Assembly (NCBI GenBank): GCA_037130755.1
Contig: JBAXSI010000002.1
Location: 111,661 to 175,660 of the forward strand
Direction of reading: 5' to 3'
DNA length: 64,000 nucleotides
DNA from: Actinomycetes bacterium
GTDB taxonomy: Bacteria > Actinomycetota > Actinomycetes > S36-B12
In this document: one piece after another, positions 5,483 through 22,590 of the stretch
Layout of the letters: every line of letters starts with the position of its first letter
How positions within the stretch are numbered: position 1 is the stretch's first letter
Notes under the pieces: model-generated
Database searches by the model: none
Told to the model about the DNA's origin: nothing
The model's input: only the letters and a program-made list of their open reading frames with translations
Position numbers and translations under genes: made by a program

Positions 5483-5581
5483 GCCGGGCCTCCGATCGGT
5501 AGTCGAAGTGTCACCTTGGGGTCTGCACTTCGCGTCCAGAATGACACGATCGGACCGGTTTGGGCGGTCGATGCGCTCCGT

Positions 5582-8500
5582 TCACGCGTGCGGATAGGGA
5601 CGGTCCAGCTGCCAGGTGAGTTCCTCGGGTGGAAGGGCCTTGGAGTAGAGCCAGCCCTGCGCGGTCGGACAGCCCATCGCGATGAGCTTGGCTGCCTGCT
5701 CGGGATGCTCCACCCCCTCGGCCGTGACGGTGATGCCCAGAACCGTGGCGAGGGCGATGATTCCCGCGACGAGGTCGCGGTCGTAGTCGGGCTTGGCGGT
5801 GAGAGCGATGAAGCTTCGGTCGATCTTGATGACGTCTATGGGGTACTGACTCAGGTAGGTCAGTGACGCGTAGCCGGTCCCGAAGTCATCGATGGCGATG
5901 CCGATGCCGCGGTCGTGGATGCCGTCGACGTTGTCACGGGCAGTGGTGGTCTGGTTCAGCAGCGCGGTCTCGGTGATCTCGATGCACAGCAGTCGGGGAT
6001 CCAGTCCGCTTGCGGCCAGCGCGTCGTCGATCGTGTCGAGGAGCCCCGCGTCGGCGAGTTGGAGGGCGGACGCGTTGACCCGAACGGTGATCGGCCGGTC
6101 GGGACGGGTCGCGGCCCAGGTGGCGCCCTGGTTGCAGGCTTCCCGCAGGACCCAGTCGCCGATGTCCAGGATCAGGCCGGTCTCCTCGGCGACCTCGACG
6201 AAACGATCGGCATTCCAGATTCCTCCGTCAGGGTGATGCCAGCGAAGGAGTGCCTCGACGGCGGTCACCGCCCCGGTGGCGAGGGTCACCTCTGGCTGGT
6301 ACCAGACGGCGAACTGGTCACGTTCGAGGCCGTGCCGGAGGTCGGCTTCCACCGCCAGGCGGGTGGTGACTGCCGTGCGAAGGTCCTCGTTGAACACTGA
6401 CACCCGGTCGCGGCCGGCGCCCTTGGCCGCGTACATCGCGGTGTCGGCCTCGCGCAGCAGGTCGCCGGCGTCACTCACGTCGGTGGCGATCGCCACCCCG
6501 ACGCTCGTGGTCGCGTACAGATCCGCCCCGCCGAGGGTGAACGGGGTCCGGAACGCTGCGACGAGCCGCTCGCCCGCCCGGACCGCCTCGGCCGGGTCGT
6601 CAAGGTCACGCATCACGACCACGAACTCGTCGCCGCCGAGGCGGGCCGTCAGATCACCGGTCCTGACCACCTGCTCGATGCGGGCCGCGGCGTCGACCAG
6701 CAGGTCATCACCTGCAGCGTGGCCAAGGGTGTCGTTGACGTCCTTGAACCGGTCCAGGTCCAGCATCAGGACCGCGGTCTCGCGGCCGGACCGGCGTCCG
6801 GCACTGACCGCCCTGTTGATCTCGTCCAGCAGCGCGGCCCGGTTCGCCAACCCGGTCAGCCCGTCATGGGTCGCGAGCACCTGCAGCGCGTCGCTGGCGG
6901 TCTTGCGCTCGGTGATGTCAAGCGCCACCCCCTGAAGCCCGACAATCCTGCCGTCCGAATCGCGCACCGCCTCCCCACGCGCCAGCATCCAGCCGTGGGA
7001 GCCGTCTGGTCGGACCATCTCCAGTTCCAGTTCGTAGGGGACACCCTTCTCCTGGGTGACCGCCAGGTCCCGGCTCAGTGTTTGCCAGCTCCCGGCGGTG
7101 AACAACTGGCTGTGCTTGCTGAAGTCCGGCACCGGGCCTGTCGGGTCCAGCCCTTGCATGAGGAACAGCTCCTCCGACCAGGTGACCTCGCTCGTCGCGA
7201 TGTCCAGCGTCCAGCTGCCAACGTGGGCGATGCGCTGCGCCTGTTCCAGCTGCGCTCGGCTTGCTTCCAGGGCGGCCTCTGCCAGCTTCCGGTCGGTGAT
7301 GTCTCGGCTCGTCTGGACCACGTGACGGACCGACCCGTCCGCGGCCGCCTCCGCCGCGGCATTCGTCTCGTACCACCGGTGGCCCCTTGCGTTGACGATC
7401 TCGAACTCGAAGGTGACCGGTTCCCCGGTGGCGAACACCGTTCGGCGGTGCTCGTCCCAGGGCTCAGTCAGCTCGGGTGGGTAGCCGAGCTCCGCGAAGG
7501 TCCTGCCGATCCAGCGTTCGAGCGGGATTCCGGTGCTCTGCTCGACCGTGGCGTTCACGTACTCGAAGCGACCGTCGCGGTCGAGGCGGATGACGGCGTC
7601 GGTGGATGTGTCCAGCACCGTGCGCAGGAGTTCCTCATTCTCGGCGAGGGTCTGCTCGGCGAGTTTGCGCTCGGTGATGTCCAGGGTGACCCCGTGCAAC
7701 TCGATGATCGCGCCGTTCGCGTCCCGGATCGCCTCGCCGCGTGCCCACGTCCATCCCTGACTTCCGTCGGTCCTGACCGTCTGGAGTTCCAACTCGTACG
7801 GGGTTCCGCTTGTCTGGGCCAGCAGGACAGCCTCGGCCAGGCGCTGCCAGCTCTCGGGTGCGAACAGTCCTTCCTGGTCAGGGAAGCTCGGCACCGGCGC
7901 TGTCGGGTCCAGGCCGAACATCTCGTACAGCTCCGGCGACCAGACGACGACTCCGGTGGCCACGGCAAACTGCCAACTGCCCAGGTGGGCGATGCGCTCG
8001 GCCTCCAGCAGCGCTTCACGAAGGCTGTGCTCCTTGGTGACGTCGAGGATCTGTGCGATCCGGTGGCTGACGATCCCGTTCGCGTCGAGCACGACCGACA
8101 CGGTCACATCACCCCAGATCACCCGGCCGTCGCCGGTCACGTACCGCTTTGTCAGTCGCAGGCTCTGCCGGCGACCGTCCACCAGTTCCCTCACCAGATC
8201 GGCACCCACCGAAGCGTCGTCCGGGTGGGTGACGTCGAGGAAGCCCAGGTTCAGCAGCTCGTCCTCGCTGCGCGCCAGCAACTCGCAGATCGCCGGATTC
8301 ACTCGGATGAGCCTGCCGTCGTTGGCGACCAGGCATGTCGCCACTCTCGAGCGGTCGAAGGCGAGCCGGGACTGCTCCTCGCTGGCGGCGAGCGCCTGTT
8401 CGGCACGGTTGCGGTCGGTGATGTCTCGGGCGGCCGCGAACACCCCGGCGACTTCGCCGTGCTCGTCGCGGTAGACCGTGGCGTTGTAGAGCACGTCGGT

Positions 8501-9241
8501 GCTGGTGCCGTCGACGTTGCGGAGTGCCAGGGGGTAGTCGGTGACCGAGCCGGCGCTGAATGCCCTTTGGTAGCCGGTGCGGGCCGCGCCGGGGTCGGTG
8601 AAGTAGGAGGTGAAGTCGCTGCCGATCAGGTTCGGACGCTGGATGCCGGTGGCCCTCACGGTGGCTGCGTTGACGTCAGTGATGACGCCGTCGGCACTGA
8701 TGACCACGAGCGGGTCAAGACTCGCCTCGATCAGGCTCCGAGAGTACGCGGACACTCTGGCCAGCTCTTCCTCCGCGCGCACTCTCTCCTCGATGTCGAC
8801 AATGATCGAGAACAGCAGCGGCCGCCCGTCCCGGATGGGGGTCGAGTGGACGTCGACCCGACGGATCTCGCCGCTGGCGAGGCGGTGCGAAGCCATGAAG
8901 ATGCCGGACCCAGCATCGTGGGAGCGCACGCGGGCCAGCAGGGCGGTCATTTCGTCGGCGGGCAGCACGTTGATCTGACCGATGGACATCGAGAGCAGGT
9001 CTTCTGCCGAGTAGCCGTAGAACGCGACGGCCGAGGCGTTTGCATCGACGATCTGCCCCGTATCGGGGTCCAGGAGCAGCATGACGGCGTCATGCTCATG
9101 GAACATCGCCGCGAACCGGTGCGCTAGCGGTTCGGTGCCCGTTTCGCGCAGCCTGTCGCTGGATGGGGGTTCTGAGGCGGGCGGCTGACGGCGCTGGTGG
9201 GTTGCCATGTCTGCCCCCCTATCGGCATTTTGTATCGACAA
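5582..9241 (-). CDS. PAS-array GGDEF-EAL protein (1219 aa), paralogue of 15778-19068
   Basis: Many PAS/PAC modules. GGDEF with RTGD I-site and ARLGGDEFVVVM. EAL domain with VEALLRW, EITETAL, DDFGTGYAS. The start could instead be the internal ATG (MATHQRR) at about 9208. Confidence 0.9.
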   Translation of the reverse strand: MSIQNADRGADMATHQRRQPPASEPPSSDRLRETGTEPLAHRFAAMFHEHDAVMLLLDPDTGQIVDANASAVAFYGYSAEDLLSMSIGQINVLPADEMTALLARVRSHDAGSGIFMASHRLASGEIRRVDVHSTPIRDGRPLLFSIIVDIEERVRAEEELARVSAYSRSLIEASLDPLVVISADGVITDVNAATVRATGIQRPNLIGSDFTSYFTDPGAARTGYQRAFSAGSVTDYPLALRNVDGTSTDVLYNATVYRDEHGEVAGVFAAARDITDRNRAEQALAASEEQSRLAFDRSRVATCLVANDGRLIRVNPAICELLARSEDELLNLGFLDVTHPDDASVGADLVRELVDGRRQSLRLTKRYVTGDGRVIWGDVTVSVVLDANGIVSHRIAQILDVTKEHSLREALLEAERIAHLGSWQFAVATGVVVWSPELYEMFGLDPTAPVPSFPDQEGLFAPESWQRLAEAVLLAQTSGTPYELELQTVRTDGSQGWTWARGEAIRDANGAIIELHGVTLDITERKLAEQTLAENEELLRTVLDTSTDAVIRLDRDGRFEYVNATVEQSTGIPLERWIGRTFAELGYPPELTEPWDEHRRTVFATGEPVTFEFEIVNARGHRWYETNAAAEAAADGSVRHVVQTSRDITDRKLAEAALEASRAQLEQAQRIAHVGSWTLDIATSEVTWSEELFLMQGLDPTGPVPDFSKHSQLFTAGSWQTLSRDLAVTQEKGVPYELELEMVRPDGSHGWMLARGEAVRDSDGRIVGLQGVALDITERKTASDALQVLATHDGLTGLANRAALLDEINRAVSAGRRSGRETAVLMLDLDRFKDVNDTLGHAAGDDLLVDAAARIEQVVRTGDLTARLGGDEFVVVMRDLDDPAEAVRAGERLVAAFRTPFTLGGADLYATTSVGVAIATDVSDAGDLLREADTAMYAAKGAGRDRVSVFNEDLRTAVTTRLAVEADLRHGLERDQFAVWYQPEVTLATGAVTAVEALLRWHHPDGGIWNADRFVEVAEETGLILDIGDWVLREACNQGATWAATRPDRPITVRVNASALQLADAGLLDTIDDALAASGLDPRLLCIEITETALLNQTTTARDNVDGIHDRGIGIAIDDFGTGYASLTYLSQYPIDVIKIDRSFIALTAKPDYDRDLVAGIIALATVLGITVTAEGVEHPEQAAKLIAMGCPTAQGWLYSKALPPEELTWQLDRPYPHA

Positions 9242-9421
9242 GACCCACTATCGGGAGCGTAACCCGTGAAGGGAGGCGATGGTTCTCGCTGAACCAATGT
9301 CCGGGAACGCAACCAGTCTCCGACTTGTTACCTGTCGTGAGATTTGTGTTGTTGTCACCAGATTTGCACCGGATTGCTCCGACTGCCCTCGGAGCGTCCT
9401 GAGACTCCGGGCTCCTGCTGC

Positions 9422-10456
9422 TCACGGCGGCGCGACGACCTTGCTGGACTTCGTCCGTTTGGTCACGACCACCCGCTTGTCGGGGGTCACCGAGATGGTC
9501 CACGTGGAGGACTGACCGGAGTACGCATTCGGGTTGGTGAGTCGCAGTCCGGAGTCCACGTTCGTGATGGTGTCAGTGGATGGGTCCGCGGGCGGATGGG
9601 AGAAGTCCTGGTTGGCCGCGACTTGGCTGCGCACGTGGGCGATCAACTCCCGCCGGGTCATCGTCGCGGCCTTCTCGCGCGCGCTGCTGGCCGCATTGCG
9701 CACGGAGTAGTAGGCCGCCGTCGTGTCCTGAGCGGCGTGCAGGGCCGCCTTCACGTAGGACTCGGGCAGCGCTGAACTGAAGTCCGGCACGATCAGCTTG
9801 GGATTGGTGAACGTGACCTGCACGGTCTGGGTGGAGCCCGGGCCGGCTCCGCCGGGGGTCTTCGTCGAGAACGACTGGAGGACGAGCGCGCCGGTGGGCA
9901 GTTGGGTGAAGGTGGCGCTGACGGTCTGGCCGGGACTGCCGTCGGCCCCGTACGTCCACGAAGCCGAGACGATCCCTGCATCACTTGCCGAACTCGAGGA
10001 GATCGCGCCCACGGGATCGAAGGCCAACAGGCGAAGGACGGGAGGGGTGCTGCCGGCCGGCTCAGGGTCCGCACGGACCCAGGACGCCTTGCGCAGCGTC
10101 GGGTAGCGGCCCGCTTTCGGCAGGGAAGGCATGGGTTGATACCTGATGCCCACTCCGTTCTTGGTGACCGTCCAGGTGGTTGCGTCCGGCTCGGAGTCGG
10201 TCATGCCTGCCTCGCGGTAGCTCGCGCGGGTCACGGCACCGCCCGGTCGGTAGTCCGTGACCTCCCGGTAGCTGATCTTCGCGGCGACCTCGTCTGTGAC
10301 GGTGCCTCCGCCGAGCATGACATTCGTCTGCGCTGCCTTCGCCGCGGCCTGCACCTGGGGCCAGGTGACTTGATCCGCGGCTGACGCAGACGTCGCCGGC
10401 ACGAGGGCCACCGCGACGGATGTGAAGGTGGCGAGTAGTGCGCGGGTAAGCCGCAT
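9422..10456 (-). CDS. Secreted hypothetical protein
   Basis: Sec-type signal peptide MRLTRALLATFTSVAVALVPATSASA followed by ADQ. High GC3. No recognisable domain motif. Confidence 0.7.
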   Translation of the reverse strand: MRLTRALLATFTSVAVALVPATSASAADQVTWPQVQAAAKAAQTNVMLGGGTVTDEVAAKISYREVTDYRPGGAVTRASYREAGMTDSEPDATTWTVTKNGVGIRYQPMPSLPKAGRYPTLRKASWVRADPEPAGSTPPVLRLLAFDPVGAISSSSASDAGIVSASWTYGADGSPGQTVSATFTQLPTGALVLQSFSTKTPGGAGPGSTQTVQVTFTNPKLIVPDFSSALPESYVKAALHAAQDTTAAYYSVRNAASSAREKAATMTRRELIAHVRSQVAANQDFSHPPADPSTDTITNVDSGLRLTNPNAYSGQSSTWTISVTPDKRVVVTKRTKSSKVVAPP

Positions 10457-10674
10457 GATGCCCTCCCGCCTACACGCTACGGCTCACGACTGCGTGATGG
10501 AGCGGTGAAGCAGTGGATGGTGAGGCCTGGGTCGGCGCGTACAGCCGGAAATAGCTGAACTAGCCCCTTCCGGAGATCGTCTCGATCCAGTTGGACTCAG
10601 CCGCCCCTGGCGGCAGCGAGGGACCGAAGAGCAGGTCGACCGATCCCTCGTCGTTGACGGCGATGCCGCCCGGG

Positions 10675-13215
10675 CTATTGCGGCGGGTGGGTCGCCGTGC
10701 CGTGCGGGTTCACCAGATCCGTGATGCTCCCGTCCGCGGCGGGGATTGGCCCGGGTCGCCCGTAGAGGTAGCCCTGGCCGTGGGTCCAGCCCTGGGCGCG
10801 CAGGATGTCGGCCTGCTCGGTGGTCTCGATCCCTTCGGCGATGCTGACGATGTTGAGTCCGTGCGCGAGTCCGGCCAGTCCAGCGGCAAGGGCCCGTGAC
10901 GTGTCGTCGGTGGTGAGCTGGCGGGTGAAGGTCAGGTCGAGTTTGAGCCCACTGACGGGGAGATCGCGGAGCAGCGCGATGGAGGAGTACCCGGTGCCGA
11001 AGTCGTCGACGTGAATCCCGATGCCTTGGTCGTGCAGATCGGCGAGGTCCTCGCGGGTGCGGTCGAGGACGGACAGGATGGCTGACTCCGTGACCTCGAT
11101 GACGATGCGTCGCGGGTCGATGCCACGCGCGTGGATCCTCGCGAGGAAGCGGTCGTGCCATCCGGGTCGGGTGATCTGGCTGGGGGAGTTGTTGACGCTG
11201 ATCGCCACCGTCACATCGGGCCGGTGCTGGAGGAGGTCGAAGACCTGTTCCAGCACCTGGTCGTCGATCTCGTCGACGAGACCGGAGTCCTCAGCGACCT
11301 GCAGGAACTCCGCCGGCGCGAGCAGCCCGCGCAGGGGGTGATTCCAGCGGACGAGGGCCTCGTAACCAGCGACCGTGGCGTCGGGCAGCGACACGATGGG
11401 CTGGTAGTGCACGACGAACTGCCGCTCACCGATGGCCGTGCGCAGCTCGGCCTCGGTGACAAGACGCGCCATCGCCTCGGCGTGCATCTCGGGGTCGAAG
11501 AACGCCCACCGTGATCGTCCGGCAGCCTTGGCCCGGACCAGTGCTGAGTCGGTGTCACGCAGCAACGACATGGGAGTGGACGTCGGGTCGGACAGGACGA
11601 TGCCGATGGAGGCGGACACCGTCACGGAATGTCCCCCGGCCAGGCCCACCTGGCTCACCGCCGCCCCGAGCCGTTCCGCGATCGCGATGGCCTCAATCTC
11701 GCCCTGGGTGCCGGGAGCGATGACAATGAACTCATCCGCGCCGAAGCGTCCGACCCGGTCCCCTGGGCGCAACGCGTGCGAGATCCGACCGGCCACGGCG
11801 ACCAGCACCTCGTCTCCGACCGTGTGGCCCAGCGAGTCGTTGACGATCTTGAAGTTGTCCAAGTCCAGGAAGAACACCGCAACCGCGGAGCCGGAACGCC
11901 GGGCGAGGGCCAGGTCGGACTCGAGAATGTCCAGGATCCAGAGCCGGTTGTAGAGCCCGGTGAGCGGGTCGTGAAGGGCGAGGAAGCGTAGCTGCTGCTG
12001 GGCCCGGTCCCGGTCGACCGACACCGAGACCAGGTGCGCTGCGTCCCGCCCGACCTGCTCCTCGCGGGCCGTCAGCGGCCGCGGCGGGTTCGATGTGAGC
12101 GTGAGTTCGCCGAGCCGTTCGTCACCGGCTCCGGCGATGGGGATCGTGCAGGATCCGGGGTCCCTTGCCTCGACGGCTGCGGTGCTGCTCTCGCCCGCTG
12201 GCAGGTCGGCAGCCATCGGTGATGAGGTCCCGTCGCCTTCGAGGCGGATGGTGCAGCGCAGGCCCGGCAGTATCTCCTTCACGTTCGCCCGCACGAACGT
12301 GACGATCGAGTCGAGGGTGTCCCCGCGTGCGATCCGCTCGAACGCCTGGCCCTGCTTCTCCACGAGCAGTTCCGCCTGCCTTCGGAGCGAGATGTCGCGG
12401 TAGGTGAGTGTGATGCCGTCGCCGAGCCGCGCGGCGTGCACGTCGAGGACCCGCCGGTCGGCCTCTTCGTGCCCGGTCGTGATCTCGAACGTTGCGGGGG
12501 CGCCGACCTCGAGCACACGCAGGCACTGCGCGTAGCACATCGACGCGTGGGACCAGGATGCGGTGATCTCGCGAAGGCTCCGCCCGACCACCGCGTCGCC
12601 GCCGGCGAGTACGACGGCCTCGGGGTTGGCATCCACGCAGACGAGGTCGACGACGCCGCCGGCGTCGTCCCGGACAGCCTCGAGGATCACGATTGCGTCG
12701 ACGAACGTGTCCATTGCCGAGCGCAGTCGCTCCGTGTTGACCGCAAGGGCAGTCGTCGCCGCTTGGCTGCTCGCCTCTGCTGTCTTCAGGGCCGCATTCT
12801 CAGCAACGAGTGCGAGCGCGCGCCGCACGGCGTCGCCCAGCCGTGCCGGGCGGTCCTTGAGGACATAGTCCCAAGCACCCTCGCGCAGCAGTTCGAGAGC
12901 GGCCTCCTCGCCGATCTGCCCGGACAGGAACACGAACGGGGTTTGGGGAGCGAGCCGTCGCGCCAGCCTGAGTGCCATCTCGCCGGACCAGCCGGGGATC
13001 CCGAAGTCGGACACGATCACTTCGGGGTCGAACCGGTCGAGTGCCTCGGTGAACGCCGCCTCGGTGTCGACGACCTCCACGACCGGGTGGAGTCCCTGGC
13101 CGGTGAGGGCGCGCACGGCGAGTTCAGCGTCGGCGGGATTGTCCTCCACGATCAGGACGCGCAAAGGCTTGGGAGCCACCGCGGTCCCGCCACCGGCGCC
13201 CACCGCGGTACTCAC
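10675..13215 (-). CDS. Response regulator REC-PAS-GAF-GGDEF(degenerate GADEF)-EAL, likely phosphorylation-controlled c-di-GMP phosphodiesterase
   Basis: REC (LRVLIVEDNPADAEL, acceptor context IVSDFGIPG). PAS then GAF-like block. GGDEF domain with GRFGADEFIVIA (second G lost) but RPGD I-site kept. EAL with YEALVRW, EVTESAI, DDFGTGYSS. The GTG start overlaps the stop of the upstream REC gene (GTGA). Confidence 0.9.
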   Translation of the reverse strand: MSTAVGAGGGTAVAPKPLRVLIVEDNPADAELAVRALTGQGLHPVVEVVDTEAAFTEALDRFDPEVIVSDFGIPGWSGEMALRLARRLAPQTPFVFLSGQIGEEAALELLREGAWDYVLKDRPARLGDAVRRALALVAENAALKTAEASSQAATTALAVNTERLRSAMDTFVDAIVILEAVRDDAGGVVDLVCVDANPEAVVLAGGDAVVGRSLREITASWSHASMCYAQCLRVLEVGAPATFEITTGHEEADRRVLDVHAARLGDGITLTYRDISLRRQAELLVEKQGQAFERIARGDTLDSIVTFVRANVKEILPGLRCTIRLEGDGTSSPMAADLPAGESSTAAVEARDPGSCTIPIAGAGDERLGELTLTSNPPRPLTAREEQVGRDAAHLVSVSVDRDRAQQQLRFLALHDPLTGLYNRLWILDILESDLALARRSGSAVAVFFLDLDNFKIVNDSLGHTVGDEVLVAVAGRISHALRPGDRVGRFGADEFIVIAPGTQGEIEAIAIAERLGAAVSQVGLAGGHSVTVSASIGIVLSDPTSTPMSLLRDTDSALVRAKAAGRSRWAFFDPEMHAEAMARLVTEAELRTAIGERQFVVHYQPIVSLPDATVAGYEALVRWNHPLRGLLAPAEFLQVAEDSGLVDEIDDQVLEQVFDLLQHRPDVTVAISVNNSPSQITRPGWHDRFLARIHARGIDPRRIVIEVTESAILSVLDRTREDLADLHDQGIGIHVDDFGTGYSSIALLRDLPVSGLKLDLTFTRQLTTDDTSRALAAGLAGLAHGLNIVSIAEGIETTEQADILRAQGWTHGQGYLYGRPGPIPAADGSITDLVNPHGTATHPPQ

Positions 13216-13640
13216 GGCGCGTCGGGCAGGGGTGGCGACTCGTTGATGAGCAGCCAGAACATGCCCAGCGTCTTGACCGCGTCGGAGAACTCCGCGAAAC
13301 TCACGGGCTTGCGCACGTATGCGTTCGCACCTTCCTGGTAACTGGAGAGGATGTCCTCCTCCTGGAGGGATGAGGTGAGCACGACGACGGGGAGCAGACG
13401 GGTGTGGCTGGAACCGCGGATCCGGCGCAACACCTCAAGCCCGTCGATCTTGGGCAGCTTGAGGTCGAGCAGCACGAGGGAAGGCAGCGTTGCGCCGTCC
13501 CCGAACAGGTGCTCGAGCGCCTCAGCGCCGTCGTGCGCGACCACGACGCTGTTGGCGACGTTGTTCTTGACCAATGCCCGCACGGTGAGGGCCTCGTCGT
13601 CGGGGTTGTCCTCGACGAGCAGGATATGGGCCTGGTTCAT
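13212..13640 (-). CDS. Single-domain response regulator (CheY/Rcp1-like receiver)
   Basis: ILLVEDNPDDEAL, LVLLDLKLPKIDGLEVL, VVVLTSS, ANAYVRKP. There is no output domain. The ATG overlaps the stop of the upstream kinase (ATGA). Confidence 0.9.
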   Translation of the reverse strand: MNQAHILLVEDNPDDEALTVRALVKNNVANSVVVAHDGAEALEHLFGDGATLPSLVLLDLKLPKIDGLEVLRRIRGSSHTRLLPVVVLTSSLQEEDILSSYQEGANAYVRKPVSFAEFSDAVKTLGMFWLLINESPPLPDAP

Positions 13641-15625
13641 GTCTGCTCCGATGGGTTGAGGGTGAAGCGGAACGTGGCCCCTTCATCGACGGCGGCCTCG
13701 GCCCAGATGCGGCCACCGTGGCGCTCGACGATGCGTCGGGCGCTCGCCAGGCCAATGCCGTTGCCGGGGAACTCGCTGGAGGAGTGCAACCGCTGGAACG
13801 GCTGGAACAGCTTGTCAGAGTAGGCCGGGTCGAAGCCCGCGCCGTTGTCGCGCACCACAAGGCAGAAGGGGGCGTCCGTCACGGTCTCGGTGCCTACCTC
13901 GATGCAGGCGTCGGGTCGCTTCGAGGTGTACTTCCAAGCATTGTCGAGCAGGTTCTCCAGCACCGTGTGCAGCAGCGGCCCGTCCCCCCGGGCCTTCATG
14001 CCGGGCTCGATGACCACCTGGACTCGGCGGTCAGGGTCGCGGTCGGCCAGGCCCTCGAGGATCGTGGCGCACTCGGCGCTGACGTCTACCCCTTCGACGT
14101 GCAGCACGGCGCGCGACACCCGCGACAGCTGGAGCAGGTCGTCGATCAGCCCCGCCATCTGTCGACTGGCCGCCTCGATCCGGTGGGCATAGCCCCGGCC
14201 GGTCTCGTCGAGGGTGTCGGAGTACTCCTCCAGCAGCGCCTCACTGAACCCGCTCATCGCTCGTAGCGGCGATCGCAGGTCGTGCGACACCGAATAGGTG
14301 AACGCCTCTAGCTCGGCGTTCGCGCGCCGGATCTCGTCTGTGCGCTGCTCCACACGTTGCTCCAGGACCGCGTTCAACTGCCTGACCTCGGCTTCCGCCG
14401 CCATCCGGTGTCTGGATTCCCGGGCGACTACCTCTTCCGCGCTCTTGCGTTCGGTGACGTCGCGGCTCGACTCGATCACGTGGGCGACGGACCCGTCCGG
14501 GCCGAACTCCGGGGCGACGCTCGTCTCATACCAGCGGTGCCCCTCCGCGTTGTCGATCTCGAACTCGAACGTGACCGGCTCGCCGGTGGTGAACACCGTT
14601 CGGCGATGGACGTCCCACGACTGAGCGAGTTCGGCCGGGTAACCCATCTCCTCGAACGTCTTCCCGATCCACCGCTCGGCCGGAATGCCGGAGATCTCCA
14701 CGACCCGATGGTTGACGAACTCCACCAGGCCGTCGGCGCCGATTCGGATCGTGGTGTCAGGCGAGGTATCGAGCACGGCCCGCAACAACTCCTCGCCGGC
14801 GACCAGTGCCTGCTGCGCTGCTTTGCGCTCGGTGATGTCGCGTGCGGCGGCGAAGACTCCGGCGACGTCGCCGTCGGGGTCGCGGTAGACGGAGGCGTTG
14901 TAGAGCACGTCGGTGACGGAGCCGTCGACGTTCCGGATCGCCAGCGGGTAGTCGGTGACTGAGCCAGCGGCGAATGCCTCGCGGTAGCCGGCACGGGCCT
15001 GGTCGGGGTCGGTGAAGTAGCCGGCGAAGTCACTGCCGATCAGGGCCTGCCTTGGGACGCCAGTGGCCGTCACGGTGGCCGCGTTGACGTCGGTGATGAC
15101 GCCGCCAGGACTGATCGTGACCAGCGGGTCAAGGCTCGCCTCGAGCAGGGACCGCGCATACCCGGACACCCGGACGAGCTCCTCCTCGACCCGCACTCGG
15201 TCCTCGATGTCGACGATCAGGGCCCGGTTCGCGTTCTCCCGGTCCGTGACATCGATGAAGGTCACGGTGACCTGCTCCAGCTGCCCGCTATCGTCGACGC
15301 TGGGAAGTGCATTGACCTCCAGCCAGACATCGGGTCCCGCGGACGGCCGGACGATCATGGTCAGCCCGTGAACCGGCTCCATTGACGAGATCACCTGCAT
15401 CACGGGGAACCGCTCCAGAGCCATCGGGGAGTGGTCGGCCTCCAGGAACACCCAGCTGGGATCGGTCGCGAGTCGGCCTTCAAGATCCTGGAGTCCGAGG
15501 AGGGCCCGTGCGCGGTCGTTGGCCTCGATGATCGCGGTGTCGGCAGCGTGGACCACCACTCCGGCGCTCAGGGCGGCCAGAAGTGCTTCGTATCGGCTCG
15601 TCACGAGATCCCACCTCCCGACCAC
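13637..15625 (-). CDS. Multi-PAS sensor histidine kinase
   Basis: Three to four PAS modules, then HisKA H-box FTYSVSHDLRSPLRAM and an HATPase_c region (NLLDNAWKYT, VRDNGAGFD, GNGIGLA). Confidence 0.9.
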   Translation of the reverse strand: MVGRWDLVTSRYEALLAALSAGVVVHAADTAIIEANDRARALLGLQDLEGRLATDPSWVFLEADHSPMALERFPVMQVISSMEPVHGLTMIVRPSAGPDVWLEVNALPSVDDSGQLEQVTVTFIDVTDRENANRALIVDIEDRVRVEEELVRVSGYARSLLEASLDPLVTISPGGVITDVNAATVTATGVPRQALIGSDFAGYFTDPDQARAGYREAFAAGSVTDYPLAIRNVDGSVTDVLYNASVYRDPDGDVAGVFAAARDITERKAAQQALVAGEELLRAVLDTSPDTTIRIGADGLVEFVNHRVVEISGIPAERWIGKTFEEMGYPAELAQSWDVHRRTVFTTGEPVTFEFEIDNAEGHRWYETSVAPEFGPDGSVAHVIESSRDVTERKSAEEVVARESRHRMAAEAEVRQLNAVLEQRVEQRTDEIRRANAELEAFTYSVSHDLRSPLRAMSGFSEALLEEYSDTLDETGRGYAHRIEAASRQMAGLIDDLLQLSRVSRAVLHVEGVDVSAECATILEGLADRDPDRRVQVVIEPGMKARGDGPLLHTVLENLLDNAWKYTSKRPDACIEVGTETVTDAPFCLVVRDNGAGFDPAYSDKLFQPFQRLHSSSEFPGNGIGLASARRIVERHGGRIWAEAAVDEGATFRFTLNPSEQT
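14474..14567. repeat. PAS-cassette nucleotide repeat, copy C (inside histidine kinase gene)
   Basis: 94-nt block gatcacgtgggcgacggacccgtccgggccgaactccgggg...gtcgatctcgaactcg. By hand alignment it differs from copy B (17899-17992) at about 6 positions. Confidence 0.8.
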
Positions 15626-15777
15626 TCGGGGGATTCGTCACTCCATACTTGACAGCCCTGCGCTTTCGAGGCTACACCCCGCTGCCCCCCGACGCGGCGT
15701 CGTGCGATCGGTGACCACCGTGGACGGTTGCGACCATCGGGCGACGGCGGGCACGCCTTTGCACACCGCCGGCCCAT

Positions 15778-18700
15778 TCAGTGGCACGGGTACGTGTGGT
15801 CCAGGAGTGGGGTGATCTGGTCGGGGGGGAGGGCGAGGGAGTAGAGGTAGCCCTGCGCCGATGGGCACCCCATGTCGCGGAGGTGGGTGGCCTGCTCGGG
15901 GTGTTCGACGCCTTCGGCGGTGACGGTGATGTCGAGGATGGTGGCCAGGGCGATGATGCCGGCGACGAGGCGGTGGTCGTGGTCGGGGAGGGTGGTGTCG
16001 GTGATGAAGCTGCGGTCGATCTTGATCACGTCGATGGGGTACTGGTGAAGGTAGGTCAGGGAGGCGTAGCCGGTGCCGAAGTCGTCGAGGGCGATGCCGA
16101 TGCCGCGGGCGTGGAGGCCGGCGAGGTTGTTGCGCGCGGTGGCGGTCTGGCGCAGCAGCGCGGTCTCGGTGATCTCGATGCACAGCAGCGCGGGGTCCAG
16201 GCCGCTGGCCGCCAGGGCGTCGTCGATCGCGGGCAGCAGTCCGGTCTCGGCGAGTTGGAGGGCGGAGGTGTTGACGCGGACGGTGATGGGCCGGTCGGGG
16301 CGGGCGGTGGCCCAGGCGGCGCCCTGGGCGCTGGCCTGGTTCAGGGCCCAGTCGCCGATGACCAGGATCAGCCCGGTGTCCTCGGCGACGTCGATGAACC
16401 GGTCGGCGGTCCACACCGTCCCGTCGGGGTGGTGCCAGCGCAGCAGCGCCTCCACGGCGATCACCGCCCCGGTGGCCAGGTCGATCTCGGGCTGGTACCA
16501 CACGGCGAGCTGGTCGCGTTCGAGGGCGTGCCGCAGGTCGGTCTCGACAACGCGACGGGTGGCGGCGCTGATGCGCAGGTCCTCGTTGAACACGGCCACC
16601 CGGTCGCGGCCCGCGTCCTTGGCGGCATACATCGCGGTATCGGCCTCCCGCAGGAGGTCTCCGGGGTCGGGTGCTGCAGCGACGTCACCGGCGATGGCCA
16701 CCCCGATGCTCGCCGTGGAGTACAGCTCCGCCCCGGCAAGGGTGAAAGGAGCCCGGAACGCGTCCACCAGCCGCCCGGCTGCCCGCACGGCCTCGGTCGG
16801 GTCGTCCAGGTCGCGCATCACGATCACGAACTCGTCCCCGCCGAGGCGGGCCACGAGGTCCCCGGCACGCACGACGTGCTCGATCCGAGCTGCGGCGGCG
16901 ACCAGCAGGTCATCACCGGCGGTGTGCCCCAGGGTGTCGTTGACGTTCTTGAACCGGTCCAGGTCCATCATCAGGACTGCCGCCGGCCGGCCCGACCGCT
17001 GTCTCGCGCTCACCGCCCTGGTGATCTCGTCCAGCAGTGCCGCCCGGTTCGCCAGCCCGGTCAGCGGGTCTCGGGTGGCCAGCGCCTGCAGCACGTCGCT
17101 GGCGTTCTTGCGTTCGGTGATGTCGAGCGCCACCCCCTGAACTCCGGTGATTCCTCCCGCGGGGTTGCGTACCGCCTCGCCGCGAGCGAGCATCCACCCG
17201 TGGGTGCCGTCGGGTCGGACCATCTCCAGTTCCAGCTCGTAGGGGGAACCAGTTGTCTGGGTCTGGGAGATGGCGGTATTCATGCGAAGCAGGCTCTCCG
17301 GGGTGAAGAAGCGATCGGACTCGGCGTAGTCCGGGACTGGGCTCTCCGGGTCCAGGCCCCGCATCAGGTACATCTCCTGCGACAGCGTGACCTGATTCGT
17401 GGCCAGGTCCAAGGTCCAACTGCCGACATGGGCGATCCGCTGCGCCTGCTCCAACTGCGACTGGCTCGCCCGCAGCGCCTCCTCCGCCGCCTTGCGCTCC
17501 GTGATGTCACGACTCGTCAGGATCACGTGGGCGACCGCCCCGTCCGGGCCGAACTCCGGGGCGACGCTCGTCTCGTACCACCGGTGACCCTCGGCGTTGT
17601 CGATCTCGAACTCGTAGGCGACAGGCTCGCCGGTCTCGAACGCACGTCGGTCGTGGGCCTCCCAACTCGTCGCGAGGTCGGCCGGGTAGCCCATCTCGAT
17701 GAATGTCCTTCCGATCCAGTCGTCGAACTGGATTCCGGACACGGCGATTACCCGACCGTTCACGTACTCGATCCGACCCTCGCTACCGACCCGTATAGTC
17801 AGGTCATTCGACGTGTCGAGCACCACCCGCAACAACTCCTCGCTTGCGACCAGTGCCTGCTGCGCTTCCTTACGGTCGGTGATGTCGCGGCTCGTCTCGA
17901 TCACATGGGCGACCGCCCCGTCCGGGCCGAACTCCGGGGCGACGCTCGTCTCATACCAGCGGTGACCGTCGGCGTTGTCGATCTCGAACTCGAACGTGAC
18001 CGGTTCCCCGGTGGCGAACACGCGCTGGCGCTGGGCGTCCCAGCTCTGAGCCAGCTGGACCGGGTAGCCCATCTCCTCGAACGTCTTCCCGATCCACTGT
18101 TCGAAAGGGATGCCGGAGATCTCCACGACCCGTTTGTTCACGTACTTAATCCGGCCGTCGAGGCCGATCCGTATCGTGGTGTCCCGCGACGTGTCGAGCA
18201 CCGTCCTCAATGACTCCTGAGCGGCGGCCAGCGCTTTCCGGGCGAGTACCTCGTCCTGTATGTCTCGTTGAGTTGCGATCCTGCCGATCGTTCCGCGCTC
18301 GTCGACGACAGCGGCGCTGACCACGCCGCCCATCCACCGGTACTCACCACTGGCCATGCGCGACCGCAGCTCGAAGCGCACCCCGGTCTCCCCGCCAGTT
18401 GTGCGGGTCCGCACTTGAGGTACGACCGCGAGATCGTCCGGATGGACGAGATCCGTGCCCTTGGTGCCCACCAGGTCATCCGGTTCGTATCCCAAGACCA
18501 GTCGGACACTCGGTGACACCCACAGGAAGACACCGTCGGGGTTGATCAGGCTGACCATGTCGGTGCTGTTCTCCGCCAGCAGCCGGTAGCGGCGCTCGCT
18601 GTTCTCAAGTGCCTCCTCCGCAAGCACTCGGTCCTCGATGTCGGTGATGATCGAGAACAGCAGGGGCGTACCGTCGCGAATGGGGGAGGAGTGCACGTCC

Positions 18701-19068
18701 ACCCTGCGGATCTCGCCGCTGGCCAAGCGATGCGGCGCTACGAAATGGCCGTGCGCACGGGATGCTGCTTTCGCCAACAGGCCAGCCACCTCGTCGGCAG
18801 GCATCACGTTGATGTCGGTGATCGACATCGAGCGCATGTCGTCCACGCTGTATCCGTAGAACGAGGCCGCCGACGGATTTGCGTCAACGATTTCCTCTGT
18901 TTCGGGGTCGATGAGCAGCATCACCGCATCGTGGTCGTGGAACACCGCGTCGAAGCGGTGCACGCCGGCGAGAACCTCGACGTCCGAGGCTTGGCTCGTG
19001 CCAAGGTGAGCGGCGGGTCCGTTTTCGTCTCCCGGGCCACCGCGTTGACCGTGGTCTTGGCCGGCCAT
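15778..19068 (-). CDS. PAS-array GGDEF-EAL protein (1096 aa), paralogue of 5582-9241
   Basis: N-terminal PAS nearly the same as in 5582-9241 (FHDHDAVMLLIDPETEEIVDAN, HRLASGEIRRVDVHSSPIRDG). Tandem duplicated PAS modules. GGDEF with RAGD I-site and ARLGGDEFVIVM. EAL with VEALLRW, EITETAL, DDFGTGYAS. Confidence 0.9.
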   Translation of the reverse strand: MAGQDHGQRGGPGDENGPAAHLGTSQASDVEVLAGVHRFDAVFHDHDAVMLLIDPETEEIVDANPSAASFYGYSVDDMRSMSITDINVMPADEVAGLLAKAASRAHGHFVAPHRLASGEIRRVDVHSSPIRDGTPLLFSIITDIEDRVLAEEALENSERRYRLLAENSTDMVSLINPDGVFLWVSPSVRLVLGYEPDDLVGTKGTDLVHPDDLAVVPQVRTRTTGGETGVRFELRSRMASGEYRWMGGVVSAAVVDERGTIGRIATQRDIQDEVLARKALAAAQESLRTVLDTSRDTTIRIGLDGRIKYVNKRVVEISGIPFEQWIGKTFEEMGYPVQLAQSWDAQRQRVFATGEPVTFEFEIDNADGHRWYETSVAPEFGPDGAVAHVIETSRDITDRKEAQQALVASEELLRVVLDTSNDLTIRVGSEGRIEYVNGRVIAVSGIQFDDWIGRTFIEMGYPADLATSWEAHDRRAFETGEPVAYEFEIDNAEGHRWYETSVAPEFGPDGAVAHVILTSRDITERKAAEEALRASQSQLEQAQRIAHVGSWTLDLATNQVTLSQEMYLMRGLDPESPVPDYAESDRFFTPESLLRMNTAISQTQTTGSPYELELEMVRPDGTHGWMLARGEAVRNPAGGITGVQGVALDITERKNASDVLQALATRDPLTGLANRAALLDEITRAVSARQRSGRPAAVLMMDLDRFKNVNDTLGHTAGDDLLVAAAARIEHVVRAGDLVARLGGDEFVIVMRDLDDPTEAVRAAGRLVDAFRAPFTLAGAELYSTASIGVAIAGDVAAAPDPGDLLREADTAMYAAKDAGRDRVAVFNEDLRISAATRRVVETDLRHALERDQLAVWYQPEIDLATGAVIAVEALLRWHHPDGTVWTADRFIDVAEDTGLILVIGDWALNQASAQGAAWATARPDRPITVRVNTSALQLAETGLLPAIDDALAASGLDPALLCIEITETALLRQTATARNNLAGLHARGIGIALDDFGTGYASLTYLHQYPIDVIKIDRSFITDTTLPDHDHRLVAGIIALATILDITVTAEGVEHPEQATHLRDMGCPSAQGYLYSLALPPDQITPLLDHTYPCH
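17521..17614. repeat. PAS-cassette nucleotide repeat, copy A
   Basis: 94-nt block with about 4 mismatches to copy B. It lies exactly 378 nt (126 codons, one PAS module) from copy B within the same gene. Confidence 0.85.
17899..17992. repeat. PAS-cassette nucleotide repeat, copy B
   Basis: See copies A and C. Encodes EFEIDNA(D/E)GHRWYETSVAPEFGPDGAVAHVI on the minus strand. Confidence 0.85.
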
Positions 19069-19322
19069 CGCTGTCCCCCTTTAGGCAAGTGGCGACTGGA
19101 ACCCCGTCGTGAGCAGCGTAGACCCGCCATCGGCCGCAAAGCCGCCGTCGGGGCCGGCGAGGGATCCGGTCGGGGGTGGTGGAGGAGAGGGGTGATCTGG
19201 TCTGGGGTAGTGCGGGGTAGTACTGGAAGCCTGCTGCGGGAGAGAGCGTCCCCTTGTGCCGTGAGCGCATCTGACTCGGCATCGGGGGGTAGCCCAGCCC
19301 AGTGACCCTGCCAACAACTACT

Positions 19323-19399
19323 TGGGGTGAGTGACGGGACTTGAACCCGCGACCACCTGGACCACAACCAGGTGCTCTACCAGCTGAGCTACACCCACC
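19323..19399 (-). tRNA. tRNA-His (anticodon GTG), CCA and G-1 genomically encoded
   Basis: The reverse complement reads g-gtgggtg-ta-gctcagctggtagagc-a-cctgg-ttGTGgt-ccagg-tggtc-gcgggttcaagtcccgt-cactcac-c-cca. It folds as a cloverleaf with a 7-bp acceptor stem and the extra 5' G typical of tRNA-His. Confidence 0.93.
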
Positions 19400-19524
19400 A
19401 TGAGCATCGCGGTGCCGGGGGCGCCGTCCTGTCATCCCGCCGCGAAGCGGGAAGGTGATTCTATCGAAGCCAGGTCCGGTGTCTCATCGGACCCGACCTT
19501 CGAGCCAGATCGGTACGCGGCTGC

Positions 19525-20172
19525 CTACGAGTGGCCGGTCTCCTCGTCGTCCGGGCCGGCGGCTGTGCCGTGCGTGACGACGTGGTTCTCGCCGATCGCC
19601 TTGGCCGTCTCGGAGTCCGGTCCGGGGTGCGGGACGAACGCCGCGTCGCGGTAGTAGCGCAGTTCTGCGATGGACTCACGGATGTCGCCTAGAGCCCGGT
19701 GGTTGCCGGTCTTCTCTGGCGTCGCGAAGTACACGCGCGGGAACCAGCGCCGCACCATCTCCTTGAAGCTGGACACGTCGACCAGGCGATAGTGCATGTG
19801 CTGGTCGAGGGCAGGCATGTACCGCGACAGGAAGCCGCGGTCGACGTAGACGCTTGAGCCGGCCAGCGGCGCCTTGCGCGCCTCGGGAATGTGCCGCTGC
19901 ACGTACTCCAGGACCAAGGCCTCCGCATCGGCGAGTGGGATGCCGTGGGGGATCTCGGTGATGAGGCCCGACTCGGTGTGCATGTTCACCACGAACGGGT
20001 CCATGGCGGCGAGGGGTGCCTCACTCGGCTTCACGACGAGGCTGATCCCGGAGTCGATCTCGGTGAGGTCCGCCTCCGTGACGATGCAGGCGATCTCGAC
20101 GATCTCGTCGAAGGACGGGTTGAGGCCGGTCATCTCGAGGTCGATCCACACCAATCGGTCACCAGTAGCCAT
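19525..20172 (-). CDS. orn: Oligoribonuclease
   Basis: DRLVWIDLEMTGLNPSFDEIVEIACIVTEADL (DEDDh exonuclease ExoI motif) and HRALGDIRESIAELRYY (ExoIII His motif). Size of about 215 aa fits. Confidence 0.9.
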   Translation of the reverse strand: MATGDRLVWIDLEMTGLNPSFDEIVEIACIVTEADLTEIDSGISLVVKPSEAPLAAMDPFVVNMHTESGLITEIPHGIPLADAEALVLEYVQRHIPEARKAPLAGSSVYVDRGFLSRYMPALDQHMHYRLVDVSSFKEMVRRWFPRVYFATPEKTGNHRALGDIRESIAELRYYRDAAFVPHPGPDSETAKAIGENHVVTHGTAAGPDDEETGHS

Positions 20173-20216
20173 GACGACAGCCTAGGAGTCGGGTCGGACG
20201 AGTCTTCGGCGGGCGG

Positions 20217-20633
20217 TTAGCGCACGAGCCAGCGCACGATGTCGAACTCGGTGACGATTCCGACGAGGCGATCACGGTCGTCGAGGACCGGTACGGCCTC
20301 GATCGCGTTCTCGGCCATGATGCGTGCCGCGACGATGGGCGACTGCATCGGCTTTGCGGAGACGAGGGGAACCATCGCCATGACCTCGCTGACCTTGCGC
20401 TTCCCGAGGTTCTCGGCCGTCGCGGGAACTTCCGCGAGGATGTTGCGGTCGCTGAGCACGCCCATGCAGGCGCCGTCCTCGTTGATGACGACCAGGTGGC
20501 GCAGCCCCGAGACGAACAGCAACTGCCAGGCATCCCAGAGCGACTCTGAGACTTCCACCGTGAGCACCGGGTTGGACATGACGTCCGCGATCAGGATGTC
20601 CTTGTGAGAGTCCAGCAGTTCGGCAGCAGTCAT
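20217..20633 (-). CDS. CBS-pair domain protein
   Basis: Two CBS repeats (VMSNPVLTVEVSESLWDAWQLLFVSGLRHLVVINEDG and VPLVSAKPMQSPIVAARIMAENAIEAVPVLDDRDRLVGIVT). Confidence 0.8.
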   Translation of the reverse strand: MTAAELLDSHKDILIADVMSNPVLTVEVSESLWDAWQLLFVSGLRHLVVINEDGACMGVLSDRNILAEVPATAENLGKRKVSEVMAMVPLVSAKPMQSPIVAARIMAENAIEAVPVLDDRDRLVGIVTEFDIVRWLVR

Positions 20634-21535
20634 GCGGCGCTCCTTTCTGGCTCAAGCGGTGGAACGACCACGACGGGACGCTGCGACTTGTGAAGGATGC
20701 CGTTGCTGACCGAGCCCAGCAGGGCTCCCATGGCCGGTCCGTGACCGTGCTTGCCCACCACCACGATGGCCGCTCGGTCGGACGCTTCGAGGATCGCCTG
20801 AACAGCAGGCGCCCGGACCAGTCGCTCCTCGACGTCGACGTCGGGGTAGTCGGCGCGAAAACCAGCGAGCACCTCGGCGGTCAGGCGGATCTCCTCGTCG
20901 GCCACGTTGCTCAGCGGCACGGGGACCGGACCGTTCGGCACGATCAGGAGGTCATAGGCGGGGACGTCCCACGCGTGCACGGCGACGATGCGCAGGCCGC
21001 GTCGGCTTGCCTGGTCGAACGCGAAAGCGAGAGCCGACTCGACCGCGGGCGATCCGTCGATCCCGACGACCACGGTGTCGCCGTCGTTGCCCGAGCCCTC
21101 GCGAATGACTCCGACCGGGCATTGCGCGTGCGCGGCGATCTGCGAGCTCACCGAGCCCAGCAGCAAGCCCTTGAACCCGCCGCGGCCACGCGATCCGACG
21201 ACGACGAGGCAGGCGGTCTCGGAGGCCTCGAGCATCACCGCGCTGGGCGAGCCGACTGCGACGCGAGTGCGCGCATGCGGTTGGCCGACGCTGATCGCCT
21301 GGGCCTCCAATTGCTCGTGCGCCTGCAGTTCCAGTTCGTCGAGAAGATCGAGGCTGGGCGGCAGGCTGACGCCGAGGCCGCCGGTCGCAACCGGCGGCAG
21401 GAGTGCGTGGACCAAGGTGAGTTCGCGACCGAGCACGCGGGCCTGATCGGCCGCCCACGCCGCCGCGGCACTGGCCGACGGCGACCCGTCAAACCCCACG
21501 ACGACGCGATCGGTGAAGGCGTCCCCGTCGGTCAT
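20630..21535 (-). CDS. Tandem universal stress protein (two Usp domains)
   Basis: RVVVGFDGSPSASAAAAWAA, LVVVGSRGRGGFKGLLLGSVS, then a second copy VVVGIDGSPAVESAL, VVVGKHGHGPAMGALLGSVS. Confidence 0.85.
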   Translation of the reverse strand: MTDGDAFTDRVVVGFDGSPSASAAAAWAADQARVLGRELTLVHALLPPVATGGLGVSLPPSLDLLDELELQAHEQLEAQAISVGQPHARTRVAVGSPSAVMLEASETACLVVVGSRGRGGFKGLLLGSVSSQIAAHAQCPVGVIREGSGNDGDTVVVGIDGSPAVESALAFAFDQASRRGLRIVAVHAWDVPAYDLLIVPNGPVPVPLSNVADEEIRLTAEVLAGFRADYPDVDVEERLVRAPAVQAILEASDRAAIVVVGKHGHGPAMGALLGSVSNGILHKSQRPVVVVPPLEPERSAA

Positions 21536-21711
21536 GGGGACAGCATGGCCTCCCCGGTCGGTGCAAGGGATGGGGAGACAGACCCCGAGGGCAGGGACCT
21601 AAGTCCCCATCTTGTTCAGGTTTGACGGTCTGCGGTGTCGGGTCTTTTGGATTCCCTGCCCCTACAATTCGCCCAACGGGTGGACATGTCGAAGATCGTG
21701 GAGAGGTCAAC

Positions 21712-22590
21712 GTGACGAGCACAGGCCGTGGCTCTGCGCCCGCGTTCTTGATCGCGGTGCTGGCGCTGGCGGGCATCGCTGCCCTGGGCGACCTTGGCGA
21801 TTCGCCCACCGTTGCGGTGGCACTGCTGGCCACCGTGCCGCTCTTCGCTGCCATCTTCCTGGGTCCGCTTGGCACGATGGCCGCGGCAATCCTGAGCGTG
21901 GTCGCCGCGCTCGCCATCACGTGGCTGCGATCCGACGGGGACTACTCGACATACCTCGTTCCGTTGATCGCCGTCGGCGTCGCCTCGCTCGTGGCGTTGC
22001 TGTCAGCAACGGTTCGCCATCGCCAGAGTGCGGCGGAGTCGGCGGCGCAAGGGGAGGCCTCGACTGCCGACGAGGTCTCCGAGGACATCGACGCCATGTC
22101 CGGCCTGCTGAACCGTCGGGGTGCCGTCCGCGCGCTGGGTTCTCACAACGTGGGTGAGGAGCGCGTCATCGCCTTCATCGACTGCGACCTGTTCGGACGC
22201 GTCAACGACGAGTACGGCCGAGACGTCGGTGACGAGTTCCTGCAGGCCATCGCCGGCCGCCTTCGCCACGCACTGCCGTCGCGCGACAGCGTCTCCCGAT
22301 GGGGAGGCGATGAGTTCCTGGTGGTCGTGTCCGCCGACGCGGACTCGGCCGTGGCTGCTCTGCACCGAGTCACCGGCACCATCAACGGCCATCCCATTCG
22401 CACGTCCGCCGGACCGATCGAGGCGACAATGTCGGCGGGCGCAGCATCCTGGCTGGTCGGGCAGGAACTCGAGGACGTCATCGCGCGTGCCGGACGCGCC
22501 CTCCGTGCGGCCAAGGAGTCCGGTCCCGGGCAGATCGTCCTCGACACCGGCCCCAGCATCGAGCGACTCGACACACCGGTGACCACTTAG
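21712..22590 (+). CDS. Membrane-anchored diguanylate cyclase (about 4 TM plus GGDEF)
   Basis: GTG at 21712 preceded by ggagagg. Hydrophobic N-terminus (FLIAVLALAGIAALG, LATVPLFAAIFLGPLG and others). SGLLNRRG, then SRWGGDEFLVVV. No RxxD I-site. The tracked ORF starts earlier at 21622. Confidence 0.85.
   Translation: MTSTGRGSAPAFLIAVLALAGIAALGDLGDSPTVAVALLATVPLFAAIFLGPLGTMAAAILSVVAALAITWLRSDGDYSTYLVPLIAVGVASLVALLSATVRHRQSAAESAAQGEASTADEVSEDIDAMSGLLNRRGAVRALGSHNVGEERVIAFIDCDLFGRVNDEYGRDVGDEFLQAIAGRLRHALPSRDSVSRWGGDEFLVVVSADADSAVAALHRVTGTINGHPIRTSAGPIEATMSAGAASWLVGQELEDVIARAGRALRAAKESGPGQIVLDTGPSIERLDTPVTT

Follow-up and report, generated by a model that had tools for sequence, protein, structure and literature searches.

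A short PAS-coding tract probably kept alike by gene conversion between a histidine kinase gene and a GGDEF-EAL gene in freshwater Actinomycetota

Gene conversion and concerted evolution are well-known features of bacterial paralogs, with duplicated tuf genes, ribosomal RNA (rRNA) operons and families of surface proteins among the examples. Proteins with multiple PAS domains are widespread, and the building and rewiring of their arrays has mostly been inferred from distant comparisons; for conversion of this kind in PAS modules, the literature searched gives general mentions only. The locus described here lies in a window of 64,000 nucleotides (nt), the whole stretch of DNA that was analysed, from an uncultured freshwater Actinomycetota bacterium. 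One type of PAS module, termed X, is found in four copies in this window: one in a histidine kinase gene (K_X), two in tandem in a gene encoding a GGDEF-EAL protein, D1 (X1 and X2), and one in D2, a paralog of D1 (D2_X). A block of 94 nt within the module is nearly identical in K_X, X1 and X2, and we consider it probable that the block has been kept in this state by gene conversion following an old duplication or shuffling of the module.

All of the relevant genes are encoded on the minus strand, and their coding sequences have to be read as the reverse complement of the plus-strand letters given in an earlier, sequence-only reading of this DNA. The whole modules are located at 14444-14797 (K_X, amino acids (aa) 277-394 of the kinase), 17869-18222 (X1, aa 283-400 of D1), 17491-17844 (X2, aa 409-526 of D1) and 7286-7639 (D2_X, aa 535-652 of D2), with X2 being the positional counterpart of D2_X. 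Within them, the block occupies 14474-14567 in K_X, where it encodes EFEIDNAEGHRWYETSVAPEFGPDGSVAHVI, 17899-17992 in X1, the first tandem module of D1, and 17521-17614 in X2, the second tandem module, at a spacing of 378 nt. The two tandem copies differ at 4 of 94 positions, and the kinase copy differs from each of them at 6. The consensus encoded by the block is EFEIDNAxGHRWYETSVAPEFGPDGxVAHVI. In D2_X, the equivalent of the block at 7316-7409 encodes EFEIVNARGHRWYETNAAAEAAADGSVRHVV and is diverged and not homogenised. A 20-nt core pattern has four matches in the window, where shuffled sequence would lead one to expect 0.02.

Near identity does not extend over the whole module. Only about 94 nt of the approximately 354 nt are 94-96% identical across K_X, X1 and X2, with the remainder at 63-84%, and identity between X1 and X2 in 30-nt sliding windows is 0.87-1.00 in the block versus 0.63-0.83 in the rest of the module. 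Over the modules, blastn gives nt identities of 84% for K_X and X1, 77-78% for X2 with either of these, and 73-76% for each of the three with D2_X; between the kinase module and the D2 stretch at 7273-7572, identity is 74%. At the protein level, K_X and X1 are 74% identical outside of the block, and X2 is 63-64% identical to the other two (64% to X1). The sequence-only reading had described much of this accurately: its hand counts of about 4 and about 6 mismatches and its 378-nt spacing proved exact, the core that it read as far as PEFGPDG is correct, the tandem flanks are indeed more diverged than the block, an identical run of 28 nt is present at 14645 in K_X and 18070 in X1, and the diverged fourth copy that it placed in the D2 gene is real. 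Its description of a cassette copied nearly identically applies to the block and not to the rest of the module, where X1 and X2 are synonymously old.

The excess identity of the block at synonymous sites is observed directly. Among K_X, X1 and X2, the same codon is used at 25-26 of the 28-29 degenerate identical residues of the block, where local codon usage would give approximately 16 (P = 3e-5 to 3e-4). Beyond the block, pairs that include X2 share the codon at 37 of 63 and 41 of 67 such residues, against 31.5 and 34.2 expected, respectively, and pairs that include D2_X show codon identity at or near expectation throughout. Synonymous divergence (dS, Nei-Gojobori) between X1 and X2 is 0.17 in the block versus 0.69 in the rest of the module, the block thus being more similar than its neighbouring codons, as homogenisation supposes; for the X2 pairs the block dS is 0.17-0.30. 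Nonsynonymous divergence (dN) outside of the block is high, at 0.17-0.32. Among 2,625 other 94-nt windows drawn from a 2.9-kb paralogous alignment of D1 with D2 and of the kinase with D2, the GGDEF and EAL cores included, the maximum identity is 88.3%, and 90% is not attained. Judged on these comparisons, the block is more alike than amino-acid constraint and codon bias together would predict. Each of two related metagenome-assembled genomes (MAGs; L002 and L004) has just one X module, at 63% identity, and both are too distant for the synonymous-site test.

An ortholog of the kinase in a sister lake metagenome, L081 (Ga0194060_10048228, 2,493 nt), carries a bounded tract of the paralogous sequence. 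It contains an intact open reading frame of 790 aa (783 aa according to gene callers). Compared with the window kinase, it has 14 differences in the 848 nt upstream of X and 3 in the 899 nt downstream, versus 41 in the 328 nt of the X module itself. Over 219 nt of the coding sequence (CDS nt 942-1160; 14466-14684 on the minus strand), L081 carries sequence of the X1 type, the matching donor-type stretch in X1 being 17891-18109 on the minus strand, with 32 mismatches to the window kinase versus 6 to the window X1. Informative sites place L081 with the window kinase by 39 to 4 over CDS nt 784-941 and with the window X1 by 28 to 2 over CDS nt 942-1160, and a GENECONV-style test returns a fragment at kinase nt 924-1164 with a permutation p <= 5e-5. 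The switch from orthologous to paralogous sequence is thus a direct observation. In the tract, the window kinase and X1 each have their own derived states relative to X2 and D2_X, and L081 has those of X1. The simplest reading would be that an X1-type sequence was the donor and the kinase the recipient in the L081 lineage; we infer donor and direction because the D1 gene of this strain was recovered only as patches, and every alternative still requires a recent exchange between K_X and X1. The duplication or shuffling of a module between kinase and GGDEF-EAL genes that had been proposed from the window is supported by the four X copies, and its homogenisation by gene conversion by the synonymous-site statistics and, most directly, by the L081 switch; the GENECONV-style result is strong for the L081 fragment but weaker for the synonymous sites of the window alone.

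L081 is not an assembly chimera. Independently built Logan contigs from metagenome run X1 (run labels are separate from the module names) cover L081 408-905 and 1196-1625 with 0 mismatches and span the junctions. An extra PAS_3-type module in L081 is only 75-77% identical to any window sequence, and this module therefore cannot be a chimera of window sequences. In the same run, the depth of the window-type tract is 0.77 versus 12-26 for the kinase flanks, so the kinase of this population is without the window-type module. PAS_3 of the L081 type was also recovered, at low depth, from a second run; two further runs have the window type, including a joint from which exactly 384 nt are missing. 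The window region is itself reproduced, with the same copy-specific differences, in at least five independently assembled contigs from different samples and assemblers; over 13.4-19.3 kb, five contigs differ from the window at four positions in all, three in the kinase and one in D1, with none in the X modules. Over window positions 15600-19300, run X1 yields D1 patches at >=95% identity together with contigs that are 83-88% identical and mixed with other paralogs, and one 4.3-kb contig joins the PAS_3-GGDEF part to an X1-like part, skipping about 623 nt. D1 of the L081 strain may have a different module architecture.

A whole PAS module has also been gained or lost in the kinase, and this difference is again seen directly. 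L081 has 384 extra nt in frame (L081 1226-1609), which place the PAS_3-type module of 128 aa between the X module and HisKA. The kinase gene is polymorphic in this respect: L081 has the module, as do runs X1 and X2, and it is missing from the window and from runs X3 and X4. The junction of the insertion or deletion is the 7-nt sequence TCACCGA at 14451-14457 (minus strand), within repeated D[V/I]TER linker codons, where the reading frame is kept. Since the X-PAS_3 pair of L081 has colinear counterparts in both D2 (X-PAS_3) and D1 (X2-PAS_3), loss of PAS_3 in the window lineage appears more likely than its gain in L081.

The linker upstream of K_X (14778-14842, minus strand) shares 89% identity with the linker that separates X1 from X2 (17825-17889) and 58% with the one upstream of X1. 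Because this linker is closest to the X1-X2 linker while the module body has the opposite affinity, siding with X1, K_X bears an apparent sign of mosaic ancestry, with the linker siding with X2. A PAS-GGDEF-EAL gene from another metagenome (L083, 1411-2136) likewise contains a tandem pair of X-type modules, again with a period of 378 nt; as these are only 59% identical, the tandem arrangement recurs, or is old, in this protein family.

The probable sequence of events would begin with the origin of the X copies by old module duplication and shuffling. Gene conversion through non-allelic homologous recombination, putatively of the RecA type, would later have copied tracts of approximately 90-240 nt among the kinase, X1 and X2. 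Conversion would keep the part coding for the C-terminal beta-sheet near identical in DNA as the rest of the module diverges, and the repeated D-I/V-T-E-R linker codons are the sites at which whole PAS modules come and go with the reading frame intact. Both processes, conversion between non-allelic copies and the turnover of modules, appear to be ongoing at the locus. One functional consequence could be the pairing of a constant signalling or dimer surface with a ligand half that is free to vary.

Several observations weigh against this account. The block was picked by eye, post hoc, and the GC content at third codon positions (GC3) is 86%, in a window and genome of 67% GC, such that identical residues often share a codon by chance, which inflates codon identity. 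A GENECONV-style permutation restricted to synonymous sites gives p = 0.06-0.16 for the window alone, and the evidence for conversion within the window alone is moderate. GHRWYE, and even PEFGPDG, recur in the distant homologs P0003, P0008 and P0010, and purifying selection therefore contributes to conservation of the block at the protein level. For L081, only patches of its strain's D1 in its sample are at least 95% like the window (Logan contigs at 95% and 82% likeness), and across its genome the strain may have diverged further than one would judge from its kinase flanks. The recurring motifs and the GC3 bias, along with the finding that the C-terminal part is also the best conserved between the L083 tandem modules, favour an explanation without recombination, in which the block is the most constrained part of the PAS domain and third-position bias renders its DNA near identical. 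We regard this explanation as unlikely, however, given that codon identity in the block far exceeds expectation and the flanks match it, that the same peptide region is only 67-77% identical in nt between the L083 tandem modules, that D2_X is not homogenised, and that even the GGDEF and EAL catalytic cores reach just 88% in 94-nt windows. Selection, moreover, cannot give the switch of L081 from kinase-type to X1-type sequence.

It is very improbable that the modules are very recent whole duplicates in which the block reflects their true age and positive selection for new ligands has driven the rest apart. Such selection does not add to synonymous divergence, and yet the X2 pairs are near saturation outside of the block, with the contrast in dS between the two parts given above, and a single duplication cannot produce both the X2-like linker and the X1-like body of K_X; the high dN outside of the block, in the part that forms the ligand pocket, is what this explanation has in its favour. 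Recent duplication of the whole module with fast protein divergence was ruled out because the synonymous sites outside of the block are old. An artefact is scarcely credible, whether repeats collapsed or chimerised during assembly or a nucleotide element has been conserved, for example an RNA structure or a binding site, although the window derives from metagenome assemblies and repeats of about 90 nt are near assembler k-mer sizes. The same sequence with its copy-specific differences was recovered across samples and assemblers, the block folds no better as RNA than its shuffles (z = +0.1 to +1.4), and an Rfam scan of the window found only a tRNA, with no match at the block. Gene conversion after an old duplication or shuffling of the module is the reading we prefer over these three.

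The X module is an ordinary PAS_4 domain with a predicted five-stranded antiparallel PAS fold. The three proteins match Pfam PAS_4 (PF08448) at 129.7-198.2 bits against a cut-off of 23.1, and the best PAS_4 stretches coincide with X modules (kinase 285-394, D1 291-401 and D2 543-652). AlphaFold2 modelled kinase aa 270-400 as a confident PAS fold, with a mean predicted local distance difference test (pLDDT) score of 92.1 (92 for K_X) and strands at 22-27, 32-35, 82-90, 93-105 and 111-120 with helices between them. In this model, the residues of the block form the end of the G-beta strand, the H-beta strand, the H-I loop and the I-beta strand. Foldseek comparison with solved PAS and LOV domains gives a probability of 1.0 and template modelling (TM) scores of 0.64-0.76, the nearest solved folds being those of short LOV proteins, VqmA, DosP and the Rv1364c PAS domain, and identity to any structure is 14-25%. 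The module thus resembles the ligand-binding PAS domains of PF08448 in its strong Pfam match and confident fold. A profile built from the four X copies matched 104,465 representative proteins at E <= 0.001; this exhaustive search returned mainly giant multi-PAS proteins and defined no subfamily.

No ligand or cofactor could be assigned to the module from its sequence and fold, with weak profile matches in the PDB (ARNT PAS-B at E about 1e-4 and FixL at E = 0.006) and generic PAS/LOV matches from Foldseek. Cysteine is absent from all four X modules, and a LOV photosensor was rejected because the residue needed to form the photoadduct is missing. The sequence-only reading suggested that one ligand could drive several outputs. 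K_X and X1 could share a ligand, which is plausible for this pair only, since X2 has diverged in the N-terminal half that forms the pocket. To regard the conserved sheet as a constant signalling surface is speculation.

The kinase gene (13637-15625, minus strand) encodes 662 aa with three PAS domains, HisKA and HATPase_c, or 655 aa from the start at 15604 that gene callers prefer. Its HisKA (55.7 bits) and HATPase_c (87 bits) matches in Pfam and the H-box SHDLRSPL identify it as a two-component sensor histidine kinase with an adjoining receiver gene. The stand-alone receiver gene (13212-13640, 142 aa) overlaps the kinase gene by 4 nt, and there is another overlap of 4 nt between the receiver gene and a REC-GGDEF-EAL gene (10675-13215, 846 aa), both genes being on the minus strand. 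The receiver and REC-GGDEF-EAL proteins are probable phosphorylation targets of the kinase, and because of these overlaps the kinase most likely also feeds into the turnover of cyclic di-GMP (c-di-GMP).

D1 (15778-19068, minus strand) is a protein of 1096 aa with five PAS domains, GGDEF and EAL, and D2 (5582-9241, minus strand) is a protein of 1219 aa with six PAS domains, GGDEF and EAL. They are colinear paralogs with 77% nt identity over 2.1 kb, in which X2 stands in the position of D2_X. Both are predicted to be bifunctional GGDEF-EAL c-di-GMP enzymes, with GGDEF matches of 153.8-155.5 bits and EAL matches of 225-238 bits in Pfam and with intact GGDEF, RxxD (RAGD in D1 and RTGD in D2), EALLR and DDFGTG motifs. 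A tRNA-His (GTG) gene lies directly upstream of D1 at 19323-19398 on the minus strand.

These genes are part of a dense c-di-GMP cluster at 3074-22590, in which five GGDEF genes, one histidine kinase and two receiver domains are found within 20 kb. The GGDEF-containing genes are at 3074-5482 (a PAS-GGDEF gene of 802 aa by Pfam), 5582-9241, 10675-13215, 15778-19068 and about 21712-22590, and a gene of 344 aa in the middle of the cluster (9422-10456) is without any Pfam match. In a scan of genome contigs, the closest relatives in reference genomes are Actinomycetota MAGs with only 53-59% aa identity. A search for protein homologs of the X1-X2 tandem gave 19 hits, of which the best was at 52%, and did not recover the proteins of the window itself. 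The NCBI MAG GCA_964537085.1 has the same locus, as do contigs of lake-water and freshwater metagenomes, and the host of the cluster is an uncultured freshwater Actinomycetota bacterium.

L091 and L092, two sister contigs, match the window with 99.92% identity over a length of 23 kb, and 8-10 of their 17-18 differences fall in a patch of 147 nt in the EAL domain of D2 (6107-6253). Four variants in this patch alter the protein, including a change of EALLR to ESLLR in the EAL signature. Conversion from D1 was rejected as the source of this cluster of single-nucleotide polymorphisms, as D1 is matched at 2 of 10 sites in L092 and 3 of 10 in L091; the patch may be an import from another strain.

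A broader proposal would treat PAS modules as exchangeable cassettes, with recombination, both as conversion of tracts between the kinase and the GGDEF-EAL gene and as in-frame turnover of modules at the DITER linkers, yielding a standing variation in sensor architecture that selection maintains in lake populations, and with the block serving both as a recombination anchor and as a constant signalling surface by which ligand halves are re-assorted between kinase and c-di-GMP outputs. We hold this proposal to be distinctly doubtful. As a case of gene conversion and domain shuffling, the locus is clear yet ordinary: the domain acted on is very common, and there is no new mechanism or kind of system. 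Its value is as a small, clean, natural example at the strain level, in which a sensor tract has been exchanged between the genes of a kinase and a c-di-GMP enzyme, and in which a PAS module has been gained or lost at a linker. It may serve to illustrate these processes and to point out natural splice points for the engineering of PAS chimeras.

In its near-identical short tracts within diverged paralogs, its excess of synonymous identity and its ortholog with a bounded tract of the paralog type, the locus resembles the conversion described for tuf genes, rRNA operons and surface-protein families. Unlike in those cases, the exchanged unit here is part of one sensory domain, and the apparent exchange is between kinase and c-di-GMP genes and between tandem domains. 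An earlier study of PAS arrays likewise describes multi-PAS arrays and in-frame gain or loss of whole PAS domains between close relatives, with boundaries at a conserved linker; that study reports such events as few and states that it saw no direct shuffling from one protein to another. At the present locus, in contrast, a tract is common to two different proteins, and this is found among near-identical strains in lake-water metagenomes.

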